Positions 24,962-30,363 of a DNA stretch of 64,000 bases are shown piece by piece. The first letter of the stretch is position 1; each line of letters begins with the position of its first letter. The DNA comes from a virus. Its lineage: Duplodnaviria; Heunggongvirae; Uroviricota; Caudoviricetes. Position numbers and translations under genes: made by a program. Under the pieces are notes generated by a model that was not told the origin of the DNA, did no database searches, and saw nothing but the letters and a program-made list of their open reading frames with translations. Location of the stretch: IMG/VR virus record IMGVR_UViG_2939142107_000001, positions 1 through 64,000 of that record; one strand, 5' to 3'.

Positions 24962-27900
24962 ATGAATGACGTTACAGTTGTCACATCGGTTACTTACCCA
25001 TCACCCGAGTCGTTGGCTCTGGTGGCTGATGTGCAATACCACGAACCATATCTGTCAGCCGCGCTAAACCGAAAATTCAGGGGAATTGTTGACCCTGGAT
25101 TTTATGCCGGTTTTTTTCCTAAGCCTGGCGGTGGGATGAACCTGTTAATCACCTCAGTGGATGGTGATAAAACCGCTGGCGCGGCGTCAGTGAATATTGG
25201 TGAATTCTACCAGGTAACTATTCAGCAGCGTAAGGATATTTCTCTTGCACTTAGCGCAGGTAAGAAATATGCAATTGTGCTGAAGGGAAGATACCTCCTT
25301 GGAGAAGATTCTTATCAGGTTAATACCGCGTCACATATTCATGCGGCTGAATTTGTTGCCAGAACCTATACCGATTCATATCAGTTAGGAGATGGGGAAC
25401 TGCTTGTTTGTACGGTGAATATCCCTGCTGGCGTATCTGCTATTACTAAGGAAATGATAGATGTATCCGACCGCATCGATCTCGCGATAGGCATTGAAAT
25501 TTCCGACTCTGTAACCAGTACCAGAAGTGATGTCGCTGCAAGTTCGCTGGCGGTTAAAAAAGCCTACGATCTGGCTAAAAGCAAGTATACGGCGCAGGAT
25601 GCAAGCACAACACAAAAGGGATTAGTTCAGCTCAGTAGCGCAACTAACAGCGACAGCGAAACAATGGCGGCTACCCCTAAAGCCGTTAAGTCTGTAAAAG
25701 AGCTGGCTGATACCAAAGCGCCAATAGAAAGCCCGAGTCTGACAGGAACGCCAACCGCGCCGACGGCAGCGCAAGGTACAAACAGCACGCAGATCGCAAA
25801 TACAGCCTTTGTTAAGGCAGCTATAACGGCACTTATCAACGGTGCACCTGGCACACTGGATACGCTTAAAGAAATAGCTGCTGCGATCAATAACGACCCG
25901 AATTTCAGCACAACTATCAACAATGCTCTGGCTCTTAAAGCTCCTTTAGCAAGTCCTGCATTAACGGGAATACCTACTGCGCCTACCGCTGCACAGGGTA
26001 CGAATAACACGCAGATTGCTACGACCGCTTATGTAAGAGCTGCTATCTCTGCATTGGTCGGCTCATCACCTGAAGCTCTTGATACCCTGAATGAGCTTGC
26101 AGCAGCACTGGGCAATGACCCGAACTTTGCGACAACAATGACAAATGCGCTGGCAGGCAAACAGCCTCTGGATGCAACTTTAACCGCGCTTGCTGGTCTT
26201 GCGACAGGCGCAAATAAATTGCCGTACTTTACCGGTACAGACACTGTTTCCCAGACTGATTTAACGTCAGTCGGTCGCGATATCCTGGCTAAAACAAGCA
26301 CACTGGCTGTTATCCAATACCTTGGTTTAAGAGAAATCGGAACCAGCGGCGAAAAGATCCCCCTGTTGAGCACAGCTAATACCTGGAGTTCTCAACAGAC
26401 TTTCAAAGGTAAGACAGCGTTTTCAGCCGCTGCTACATTTAGTGCCGGGATAGCAGGAGCCATCGAGCCGGAAAAAATTGGCGACCAGACGGTTGATCTT
26501 AACAACCTGACCATCAGCTCAGATGTCGGGGCAATTAAATATTATTATTGTCCAACCTTTGGAGGTGGTGCAAATATCACCAACAAGCCTGACGGCGTAA
26601 ACGGTAACTTTTTGCTCCGTGTAGAGTCGACTCGCAAAGTTTCTGCTTCGGATTATGCGAACATGCAAACGCTGATCAGCAACGACACAAAACGTATATA
26701 CGTTCGCTTTGTTGTTAATGGAAGCTGGGCAGCGTGGAGTCAGGTTGTTGTTTCCGGATGGGGTCAGGATGTAAGTGTTAAGTCTCTTAGTGCCGTGGCT
26801 CTTAGTGGATCTTTGACAGGTAATGCATCCACCGCCACAAAACTGCAAACAGCACGCACAATCGGCGGAGTGTCGTTCGATGGTAGTGCCAATATCGACC
26901 TGCCGGGCGTGAATAAAGCAGGTAATCAGAGCACTACCGGCAATGCTGCAACCGCTACGAAACTGCAAACAGCCCGCACAATCAACGGTGTTAAGTTTGA
27001 TGGTTCTGCGAACATTTCGATACCAACAATTACGTCCAGAGGGCGTGTTACTGCGCTCACCGATACAACACAAGGTGCTGCTACTGGATTGCAGATGTAT
27101 GAGGCGTACAACAATAGCTACCCGACCGCGTATGGCAACGTATTGCACATGAAAGGTGCGAGTGCTGCTGGTGAGGGCGAGTTGCTTATTGGCTGGAGTG
27201 GTACGAGCGGTGCACATGCGCCGGTTTTCATTCGCTCCCGAAGAGATCACACTGATGCGGCATGGTCAGCGTGGGCGCAGGTATATACATCAAGGGACTC
27301 CATTCCTGGTGTGAATGCCACTGGCAATCAGAATACAACTGGCAATGCAGCAACTGCTACAAAACTACAGACGGCAAGAACTATCGGCGGAGTTAGCTTT
27401 GATGGTACTGCGAATATTAATTTACCTGGTGTTAACGTTGCGGGTAATCAGAATACATCCGGTAACGCGGCTACAGCGACCAAGTTACAAACCGCTAGAA
27501 CTATAAATGGGGTGTCGTTTGACGGTTCTAAAAACATTGAGCTAACTCCAAGGTCTATAGGCACGATCAACTCAATAACAATGTCTTTTAGTGGTGGTGC
27601 TGGATGGTTCAAGCTGGCAACTGTAACCATGCCACAGGCCAGTTCCGTGGTTTACATAAGCCTGATTGGTAGTTCTGGATATAATGTTAACTCCCCTATG
27701 CAGGCTGGTATATCTGAACTTGTTCTTCGTGCGGGAAATGGGAATCCAAAAGGTCTTACTGGTGCGTTATGGCGACGGACATCGGTTGGATTTACTAATT
27801 TTGCATGGGTGAATACATCCGGTGATACCTATGATGTTTATGTTGAAATAGGTAATTTCGCCACGGGTGTAAATATCCAGTGGGATTATACCAGTAACGC

Positions 27901-30149: not shown

Positions 30150-30363
30150 CTTCAAGAGCGAGCGCATACTGCATCCAGGCCAATCTAACTTTCATTCGAC
30201 CAGAGTGTCACCTCTCAAAAGCATTTTTTAACTCTGGTCGTTCAGCCTTTTTGCCGCTCGCCTTATCCTCAAAAATTAGCTCACATCCTGCGCTTTCAAG
30301 GGCATTTCGTTGCTAAGCAGTGTTTTGTTCATTTGTTGATACGCGTACATAGCCTATTAGCAT
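30150..30363 (-). pseudogene. cin: cin DNA invertase pseudogene: N-terminal remnant only, with multiple lesions
   Basis: Minus-strand translation from the ATG at 30363 reads [50 protein letters not shown]. After a frameshift it reads GDTLVE*KLDWPGCSMRSL. The serine-recombinase catalytic motif is present, but there is an amber stop at codon 17, a frameshift, an opal stop, and loss of the 3' two thirds. The lower boundary is approximate. Confidence 0.85.

Follow-up and report, generated by a model that had tools for sequence, protein, structure and literature searches.

The Cin fibre switch of P1 is dismantled in the DNA analyzed here, a stretch of 64 kb (the window) that forms part of an IncY P1/P7-like phage-plasmid of E. 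coli. The cin invertase gene is a pseudogene stub, the S tail-fibre gene carries a crossover site with no partner, and the inverted alternative cassette is absent. A preliminary description of the sequence had proposed that the switch is dismantled and the fibre locked in one configuration, a view now supported by plasmid pSBF45b, which shows the deleted part, and by 13 collinear plasmid records. We put the probability that a single deletion followed by decay of the cin remnant explains the locus at roughly 0.9. That P1-like plasmids can lose the Cin switch is already published, as is this allele in plasmid pSvP1, and the finding is correct but ordinary.

Anatomy of the fibre region

The window is near-identical to plasmid pCARB35_01 (NZ_CP031654.1), a complete sister record of 89.6 kb; within the first 64 kb the two differ by a single substitution and an IS5 insertion. 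For the final ~26 kb of the element, which lie beyond the 64-kb window, this sister record was assessed instead. It is typed IncY and has repA, parAB, cre, c1, phd/doc, pacAB-like, and tail genes. Blocks of 95% nucleotide identity with P1, synteny in the structural and lysis genes, and a plasmid replicon place the element among the P1-like phage-plasmids (Punavirus/IncY). The left block (window 24000-26409) corresponds to P1 38803-36394; homology ends at 26409 and restarts at 30163, inside cin, from where the right block continues to 31800, again at 95%. The features of the region are listed in Table 1.

Table 1. Positions of features in the fibre region and its flanks (window coordinates)
Feature	Position	Strand	Basis or remark
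R, first gene of the tail-fibre operon	24516-24950	+	95% nucleotide identity to P1 R; P1 annotation
S tail-fibre gene, single unbroken ORF, 1566 aa	24962-29662	+	ORF list; Pfam
Sc part of S	24962-26322	+	
Sv part of S	26323-29662	+	
cixR crossover site, partnerless	26310-26335	-	26/26 against P1 cixR
Conserved joint directly distal to cix, final stretch common to P1 and all sampled relatives	26336-26409	+	
Tail-fibre assembly gene, Tfa type, not P1 U	29662-30072	+	Pfam Caudo_TAP, E 6e-22; PHROG tail fibre assembly families
Spacer past Tfa, homologous to the pSBF45b Tfa/U' spacer	30073-30131		
31-bp filler at the deletion junction	30132-30162		Matched by neither pSBF45b nor P1
cin pseudogene stub (cin nt 1-212 minus 11 bp)	30163-30363	-	Translations; alignments to P1 cin and five relatives; tblastn; Pfam
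Predicted recombinational enhancer (sis) homologue inside the cin 5' end	30274-30345	-	P1 annotates the enhancer at cin nt 19-90
Weak cix-like quasi-site, former cin promoter region	30409-30434		4 of 18 specified positions mismatched; central dinucleotide AG, not TT
lydC holin, first gene of the conserved right flank	30491-30772	+	Sister-record annotation; 95% P1 block

P1 (AF234172) has the same layout in the same orientation, with R, Sc, cixR, a variable fibre end, an assembly gene, cin pointing towards the segment and lydC/A/B, and the two elements share 95% nucleotide identity over R-Sc and from the 5' part of cin into the lyd genes. Unlike P1, the window has no cixL, Sv', U', or 0.62-kb inverted repeats, and its cin is cut at nt 212 and bears three further lesions. 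The fibre end also differs, with an Sv of 1112 aa and a Gly_rich_2 tip versus 534 aa in P1, and with a chaperone of the Tfa type versus U.

The shaft is of P1 type: aa 1-483 of P1 S align to the window S at 95%, and the first homology block stops at 26409/26410 in P1, Ro157c2YLVW, pSvP1, pSBF45b, and phi456. Pfam matches along S are Phage_fiber_2, Gp34_trimer (aa 1009-1086), and Gly_rich_2 (aa 1375-1563), and a module at aa 1220-1358 resembles Mu S/S' (8ju3, E 4.5e-25). An NCBIfam scan of S and Tfa returned no matches. The start codon of the assembly gene overlaps the S stop at 29662; its product belongs to the Caudo_TAP family of lambda Tfa type (PF02413, 78.6 bits versus a gathering cut-off of 22.1) and is not matched by P1 U or U' in tblastn. 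As a whole the fibre is a common kind of mosaic, assembled on a shaft of P1 type; the host-range strategy different from that of P1 which the preliminary description suggested is speculative.

The cin remnant and the missing cassette

Alignment to P1 cin bore out the dead invertase gene of the preliminary description, with its amber stop at codon 17, frameshift, and opal stop. The amber codon (TTA to TAG) lies at 30313-30315, an 11-bp deletion at ~30224 shifts the frame, the opal codon (TGG to TGA, at Trp61) lies at 30192-30194, and homology to cin is lost past nt 212, at window position 30163. Beyond the frameshift, the remnant reads on in another frame as RGDTLVE*KLD. The stub is 90% identical in amino acids to P1 Cin aa 1-49 by tblastn, and its stitched translation matches the Pfam Resolvase N-terminal domain (PF00239, E 2.5e-13) over model positions 2-73 of 145. 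It thus carries part of a resolvase-type N-terminal domain, with the active-site serine in the YVRVST motif, and lacks an unbroken invertase frame of ~186 codons. The preliminary description had allowed that the remnant might prove not to derive from an invertase; the Resolvase match and the P1 cin alignment are both positive, and that origin stands. The extent then given, 30150-30363 and ~75 codons, is slightly too long: the remnant spans 30163-30363 and ends at about codon 71. In both the window and the whole sister plasmid, tblastn with P1 Cin covers aa 1-74 only, with no C-terminal helix-turn-helix domain, and finds no other Cin-like gene.

The alternative cassette is likewise absent. Over the 89.6-kb sister plasmid, tblastn searches with P1 U, U', and Sv' and with the window's own Sv and Tfa gave matches only within 24962-30072, all of them on the plus strand and none on the minus strand. 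There are no inverted repeats of ≥25 nt in 24900-30500, and none involving S anywhere in the window. The locus therefore has neither opposed alternative fibre ends nor bounding inverted repeats, the two hallmarks of an invertible segment, and the earlier claim that no U'/Sv' copy exists agrees with these empty searches of the window and sister plasmid.

What is missing can be read from the P1-like IncY plasmid pSBF45b (NZ_CP067234.1), which has the same Sc, cixR, and lyd flank, and a glycine-rich tip and Tfa that are 88-92% identical to those of the window. Unlike the window, it keeps U', Sv', cixL, and an intact 561-nt cin (annotated 'recombinase family protein'), all within the 2.5 kb that the window lacks. 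Window positions 29600-30131 align to positions 3834-4361 of the pSBF45b locus, stopping 13 bp ahead of the U' stop codon, and the equivalent of its positions 4362-6891 (~2.5 kb) is absent. A search of PLSDB for the source of the filler found it only inside this same junction, and neither P1 nor pSBF45b gave a match. In PLSDB, 31 E. coli plasmids contain the exact 41-bp junction (30126-30166), which has no other context there.

Origin and spread of the dead allele

We propose that the ancestor had the standard P1 layout, with R, Sc, cixR, Sv, an assembly gene, inverted U' and Sv', cixL, and cin pointing towards the segment, and that its forward cassette would have been the long fibre end with the glycine-rich tip and Tfa-type chaperone. 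One deletion of ~2.5 kb would then have taken U', Sv', cixL, and the 3' two-thirds of cin, leaving the 31-bp filler at the junction. Without the recombinase and second crossover site, the segment would no longer be able to invert. Decay of the stub as a pseudogene would have followed, with the opal stop and 11-bp deletion arising early and the amber stop late, in this lineage; this order of events is the one suggested by the distribution of the lesions. On this account, descent and homologous recombination have since carried the block of fibre tip, Tfa, and dead cin into further P1-like phage-plasmids and into more distant ones. The pSBF45b cassette is only ~88-92% identical, making it a cousin, not a parent. 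Given the 31-bp filler, the true ancestor was not exactly pSBF45b-like at the U' end.

Four aligned relatives, pSvP1, pEC15-3, pCE0026a2, and p2_035125, share with the window the truncation point, 11-bp deletion, and opal stop in identical form, whereas the amber stop occurs in the window sequence only and is absent from these four; stubs of other lineages carry private indels. Stub identity between lineages is 90.5-96.5%, versus 98.5-99% for Tfa and 99.7-100% for lydA. The stub thus accumulates changes faster than the neighboring genes on either side, which points to one old loss, later passed on by descent and recombination. The preliminary description had judged the loss not recent, and three of the four lesions are indeed common to diverged relatives; its reasoning from multiple lesions to age was right overall, but the amber stop itself is late.

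A published relative is pSvP1 (MN510446), which shares the junction, 11-bp deletion, opal stop, glycine-rich fibre tip, and Tfa. It differs in having no codon-17 amber stop, a 1-nt insertion of its own, and an S gene with a different repeat stretch and without the equivalent of window 26411-27352. Venturini et al. (2019, Sci Rep, PMC6906374) described its 'partial invertase orf' and concluded that P1 variants of this kind have presumably lost the Cin switch. Also restricted to one fibre configuration, with cixR retained in S, are phi456, Ro157c2YLVW, JL22, pRHB41-C23_2, and pTZ20_1P. In phi456 and pRHB41-C23_2, cin is cut at breakpoints other than that of the window, phi456 keeping ~50 nt; cin was undetected in Ro157c2YLVW; pTZ20_1P was reported as delta-cin (PMC6906374); and in JL22, known here from the literature only, U and part of S were reported as replaced (PMC9603915). 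These losses are events independent of the one in the window, some with an acetyltransferase gene after tfa and others IS26-mediated deletions. Loss of the switch among P1-like elements is recurrent.

A query spanning R, S, and the lyd genes matched 773 records, 245 records have cin and cixL at ≥90% identity, and the Tfa/dead-cin region is common to 43, all three being rough counts that give no exact fraction of intact versus lost cin, as the 11-bp deletion interrupts megablast alignments and pseudogenes are missing from PLSDB.

The deletion need not have happened in this backbone. The block may have arrived in its dead state from another P1-like element, through homologous recombination with the Sc/cix joint and cin/lyd as arms, an alternative to which we give somewhat less than an even chance. 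At least one such case exists: p2_035125 has an otherwise unrelated backbone and shares window 28409-30365 at 99.1%, with the edge at the cin start codon. Homology breaks at 26409/26410 in every relative, and the fibre region is a known hypervariable hot spot (PMC9603915, PMC6906374). Against this, the Sc, lydA, and lydB flanks of the window are as close to those of pEC15-3 and pCE0026a2 as the block is, and therefore vertical descent is equally possible. Import would alter only the place of the deletion, not the identity of the locus.

A second alternative is that the stub is kept for a function, as a Fis-binding or enhancer element, as a source of antisense transcription running from the old cin promoters into the fibre operon, or as a short peptide. 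Its retention in at least 31 plasmids, its movement with the block into a foreign backbone, and the enhancer region being its best conserved part would fit such a role. However, the stub diverges faster than both flanks, its indels and stops differ by lineage so that no frame is kept, a promoter and terminator consensus scan of 29900-30900 gave counts equal to chance, and phi456 manages with just ~50 nt of cin. We regard a retained function as improbable and favor decay after the deletion.

The partnerless crossover site and consequences for the lineage

The crossover site TTCTCTTAAACCAAGGTATTGGATAA lies on the minus strand within S, where a cix-type site of 26 bp had been noted, and is identical at all 26 positions to the 26 bp centred on the annotated cixR of P1. 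It has the structure of a Din-type cix site (26 bp, two imperfect inverted 12-bp half-sites, and a 2-bp core) and is the sole match in the window at ≤3 mismatches, with none expected by chance. The site is retained 26/26 in six of the seven cin-less relatives sampled; that of Ro157c2YLVW has a core-adjacent substitution. Its survival can be attributed to its location within conserved S coding sequence, and in this element cixR probably no longer serves any role.

P1 and pSBF45b each have two cix sites. As initially proposed, no second cix was found here: a degenerate Din-site scan of the whole 89.6-kb sister plasmid yielded no inverted partner and one further weak candidate only, the quasi-site at 30409-30434. 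In P1 the equivalent stretch is 31589-31614, which overlaps the annotated -35 of P1cin; to judge from its position relative to the P1 annotation, the quasi-site may be the promoter-proximal pseudo-cix 'cixPp'. The predicted enhancer is 68/72 identical to that of P1, the amber change accounting for two of the four differences. The stub and the 26-bp site belong to the same Din family as Mu Gin and its G segment, p15B Min, e14 Pin, and Salmonella Hin; those systems are intact and inverting, whereas the window has neither recombinase nor second site, and therefore no inversion is expected. Of the plasmid records covering ≥80% of the region, all 13 are collinear with it in one piece, and from the sequence and these assemblies we infer that the segment does not invert in vivo.

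Cin, Gin, Hin, and Pin cross-complement, and rare use of quasi-cix sites appears in the older literature. A host Din invertase (PinE, PinR, or PinQ) might therefore operate the switch in trans, recombining cixR with a quasi-site or with a site on another replicon, helped by the enhancer, so that the fibre would still vary. The perfect cixR, the enhancer homologue, and the presence of cin-like genes in 3754 of 5426 complete E. coli genomes permit trans action by Pin in principle, but there is no partner site, and therefore nothing functional follows. The best second site in 89.6 kb has a different central dinucleotide besides its four mismatches; recombination between it and cixR would invert or delete Sv-Tfa and destroy S; there is no alternative cassette to join; the full-length assemblies are uniformly collinear; and the Ro157c2YLVW site is altered next to its core. 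Operation in trans is thus very unlikely. Equally slim is the chance that cixR and the enhancer serve as a docking site at which host Din invertases occasionally fuse Sc to cassettes of e14, Rac, Qin, or a co-resident P1 or Mu, an arrangement that would give host-range variation without an own recombinase or spare cassette. An assembly artefact, in which the inverted U'-Sv' copy collapsed or was dropped, as sometimes happens when invertible regions with long inverted repeats are assembled from short reads, is next to impossible, given that the junction is present in 31 independent records from different laboratories, many of them complete circular plasmids, and that the stops and frameshift in cin cannot come from collapse.

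With the switch lost by deletion, each virion should bear the single 1566-aa S fibre. One fixed and unusually long fibre is expected on the virions of this whole widespread lineage, of which at least 31 plasmids have been sequenced. The host range of the lineage, and hence its reach in transduction and resistance-gene transfer, would not be transferable from P1. The main use of the finding lies in annotating, tracking, and using P1-like phage-plasmids, and it opens no new question. The shared junction and graded lesions form a molecular marker for tracing the fibre module between phage-plasmid backbones; the plasmids with the junction come from dogs, humans, sewage, pigs, poultry, and cattle.

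Layout of the fibre region and absence of an inversion cassette

A search of plasmid records matched 24800-31200 at 100% identity to several E. coli plasmids of ~84-90 kb. One of these, pCARB35_01 (NZ_CP031654.1), an IncY plasmid of 89,643 bp from a dog wound isolate, corresponds by sequence comparison over positions 1-64000 to the window apart from a single substitution (28482) and an IS5-family insertion of 1.2 kb (56081-57275). Its gene content (repA, parAB, cre, c1, phd/doc, terminase, and tail, baseplate and lysis genes) is that of a P1/P7-like phage-plasmid, and this sister record stood in for the final ~26 kb of the element, beyond the window.

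Window 24000-26409 corresponds to P1 38803-36394 at 95% nucleotide identity, covering R, the constant part of S (Sc), and cixR with 87 bp past the crossover, and window 30163-31800 corresponds to P1 31871-30223, also at 95%, covering the first 212 nt of cin, its promoters, lydC, lydA, and lydB. In the equivalent interval P1 carries Sv, U, inverted U' and Sv', cixL, and the 3' end of cin, whereas the window carries the remainder of S and a Tfa-type assembly gene. In the sister plasmid, tblastn queries taken from P1 (U, U', Sv', S) and from the window itself (Sv, Tfa) matched nowhere outside 24962-30072, and all their matches were on the plus strand. Inverted repeats of at least 25 nt were absent from 24900-30500, and none touched S across the whole window; both kinds of search thus agree with the preliminary description that there is no Sv'/U' cassette. 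Each of the 13 plasmid records with coverage of 80% or more over 24800-31200 aligns there as one collinear piece. We infer that inversion is absent in this element.

The IncY plasmid pSBF45b (NZ_CP067234.1) retains an intact layout. It shares Sc and cixR with the window, and window 28376-30131 has a homologue in its forward fibre end and Tfa (88%; Tfa 92%). Beyond Tfa come U', a tail-fibre assembly gene in inverted orientation, an equally inverted fibre end (Sv'), cixL, and a recombinase gene that is intact at 561 nt. Window 30131 is equivalent to position 4361 of L006, the pSBF45b sequence, 13 bp ahead of the U' stop codon, and window 30163 to position 6892, within cin. Because the window equals the pSBF45b layout minus ~2.5 kb, plus a 31-bp filler (30132-30162), the comparison supports the proposal that the switch was dismantled, apparently by deletion, over a fibre operon that never had a switch.

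Features of the fibre region, the cin stub and the IS5-family insertion
Feature	Description	Position	Basis
S, distal remainder	part of single 1566-aa ORF	26410-29662	
Assembly gene	Caudo_TAP (Tfa-type)	29662-30072	
Direct-repeat family in S	~120-204 nt; encodes seven motif copies	26812-27015, 27334-27537, 28285-28608	
Tandem array	120 bp, 2.7 copies	28291-28608	
C-terminal tip of S	Gly_rich_2; S aa 1375-1563	29084-29659	Pfam
cin lesion 1	TTA to TAG, codon 17	30313-30315	alignment with P1 cin
cin lesion 2	11-bp deletion	~30224	alignment with P1 cin
cin lesion 3	TGG to TGA at Trp61	30192-30194	alignment with P1 cin
cin lesion 4	homology entirely gone past cin nt 212	30163	alignment with P1 cin
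Weak cix-like sequence	TTAACAGAAACCAGTGTGTGTGGAAA; 4/18 specified positions wrong; central dinucleotide differs	30409-30434	
IS5-family insertion	~1.2 kb; transposase ORF 338 aa at 56227-57243, minus	56081-57275	NCBIfam IS5 family, E 2e-109

The cin stub and the age of its lesions

The minus-strand translation from 30363 reads as the Cin N-terminus and, after a frame change, as RGDTLVE*KLD; when stitched, it matches the Pfam resolvase N-terminal domain at model positions 2-73 of 145. With P1 Cin as query, tblastn aligned aa 1-74 only, at 30363-30153. The preliminary description of the cix site and of the cin remnant is borne out. The 5' end of cin is present as described, but the boundary of the remnant is at 30163 and not at 30150.

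The stubs of the window, pSvP1, pEC15-3, pCE0026a2, and p2_035125 were aligned with the intact cin genes of P1 and pSBF45b. The truncation point, the 11-bp deletion, and the opal stop are common to the window and all four relatives. The codon-17 amber is found only in the window, the four relatives having TTA or TTG, and private indels occur in each of pSvP1, pCE0026a2, and pEC15-3. Between lineages, identity is 90.5-96.5% for the stub, 98.5-99% for Tfa, and 99.7-100% for lydA, the pattern that would be expected under relaxed constraint. The exact 41-bp junction is present in 31 PLSDB records, all from E. coli (sources: dogs, humans, sewage, pigs, poultry, and cattle), and never occurs in PLSDB in any other context.

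Phage-plasmid p2_035125 (NZ_CP058659.1), which has a different replicon type (rep_cluster_1704), matches window 25715-27018 at 95% and 28409-30365 at 99.1%, the match stopping on the right exactly at the cin start codon, and its backbone is elsewhere unalignable or merely 67-77% identical. Given this near-identical block in a foreign backbone, the fibre block including the dead cin has moved by recombination, and p2_035125 is a clear case of such transfer between phage-plasmid lineages. We propose that a single old deletion came first, that secondary lesions followed early, and that lineage-specific lesions arose later. The shared and private lesions, the greater divergence of the stub than of Tfa or lydA, the spread of the junction, and the transfer of the block together argue, as the preliminary description had suggested, that the loss is not recent.

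Venturini et al. 2019 (PMC6906374) already described a partial invertase ORF in pSvP1 (MN510446), which carries the same junction as the window, and concluded that P1 variants of this kind have presumably lost the Cin switch. In a second survey, lydC-cin-Sv'-U'-U-S is one of eight hypervariable regions in 54 P1-like phage-plasmids (PMC9603915). Among P1-like elements cin is damaged in other independent ways: phi456 has cin cut to its first ~50 nt, and the breakpoint of the cin stub in pRHB41-C23_2 differs from that of the window. Ro157c2YLVW, in which the window's cin stub has no match, carries an acetyltransferase gene inserted downstream of tfa; a replacement of this kind is also reported for JL22 (PMC9603915). 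The original observation, correct and well read, therefore falls within an already described phenomenon, to which the present analysis adds the relative with intact layout, the relative order of the lesions, the number of plasmids that bear the junction, and the passage of the block into a foreign backbone.

In Ro157c2YLVW (L004, 5134-6431) and pRHB41-C23_2 (L011, 4232-5715) an inserted serine O-acetyltransferase/DapH-like gene separates tfa from the lysis genes, and U' survives as fragments only; this looks like a separate route of switch loss. In p2_035125 (L010), the stretch 3359-6416, 95-100% identical to the window, contains the distal part of Sc, cixR, the fibre tip and Tfa together with the same dead cin.

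Retention of cixR and an improbable role for a host invertase in trans

The 26-mer TTCTCTTAAACCAAGGTATTGGATAA, at 26310-26335 on the minus strand, matches, at 26/26 positions, the sequence surrounding the cixR crossover annotated in P1, and is its single occurrence in the window allowing up to 3 mismatches (chance expectation 0). Over the whole 89.6-kb sister plasmid, the degenerate Din-site pattern TTNTCNNAAACCNNGGTTTNNGANAA recovered cixR at 1 mismatch and, with up to 4 mismatches, no second cix except the weak candidate at 30409-30434; tblastn with P1 Cin found no other Cin homologue there, and the site is an orphan but for this quasi-site. The candidate lies in the former cin promoter region, and the corresponding stretch of P1 overlaps promoter P1cin at its annotated -35 element. 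For P1, a promoter-proximal pseudo-cix site has been described.

Among 5426 complete E. coli genomes, 3754 contain cin-like DNA, annotated mostly as pinE or recombinase. The enhancer homologue at 30274-30345 is identical to the P1 enhancer at 68/72 positions, with the two-base amber change its sole difference from the intact pSBF45b allele. Because such genes are common and the enhancer homologue is near-intact in sequence, a host invertase could probably bind cixR. It is highly improbable, however, that cixR is still functional through such an enzyme acting in trans: a site to pair with and a cassette to swap in are both lacking, and recombination of cixR with 30409-30434 could do no more than invert or delete Sv-Tfa, which would destroy S. 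Among 7 cin-less relatives, cixR persists in 6 and has a core-adjacent substitution in the other; because the site sits within the coding sequence for the conserved joint of S, coding constraint by itself may account for this retention.

Modules of the tail fibre and neighbouring observations

S is P1-like over aa 1-483 (95%), and two further stretches of P1 S, aa 490-672 and aa 756-823, are matched at 69% and 82%; these matches indicate a P1-type shaft that has gained extra modules and ends distally in another way. A ~40-aa motif (GNAATATKLQTARTI.GV.FDGS.NI) occurs in groups of 2, 2, and 3 copies. S aa 1220-1358 resembles Mu S/S' (8ju3; E 4.5e-25), the tip has weak sequence similarity to the solved cyanophage Pam3 fibre protein (7yfw/7ypx, E ~0.007), and every part of S matches common PHROG tail-fibre families. 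The S proteins of relatives show in-frame gain or loss of whole modules: pSvP1 is without window 26411-27352, and pEC15-3 and pCE0026a2 are without 28610-29011, the 402-bp Mu-S-like module. Because these modules adjoin the repeated motif, their presence or absence suggests that the fibre was reshaped by recombination between internal repeats. The locked state and the long single fibre had been taken to suggest a host-range strategy different from that of P1; the variation of the fibre is ordinary tail-fibre mosaicism, which does not show a distinct programmed strategy.

The gene table of NZ_CP031654.1 lists only 27629-29662 in the S region ('glycine-rich domain-containing protein') and has no entry for 24962-27628, the first 2.7 kb of S, whereas the window ORF is unbroken over 24962-29662; the probable cause is a split annotation or the omission of a feature by PLSDB. 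The IS5-family insertion, which the otherwise identical NZ_CP031654.1 lacks, has 4-bp flanks (TTAG) that appear duplicated. By the sister annotation it lies ~80 bp upstream of a small gene preceding the c1 repressor gene, and because of this position it might affect immunity control.
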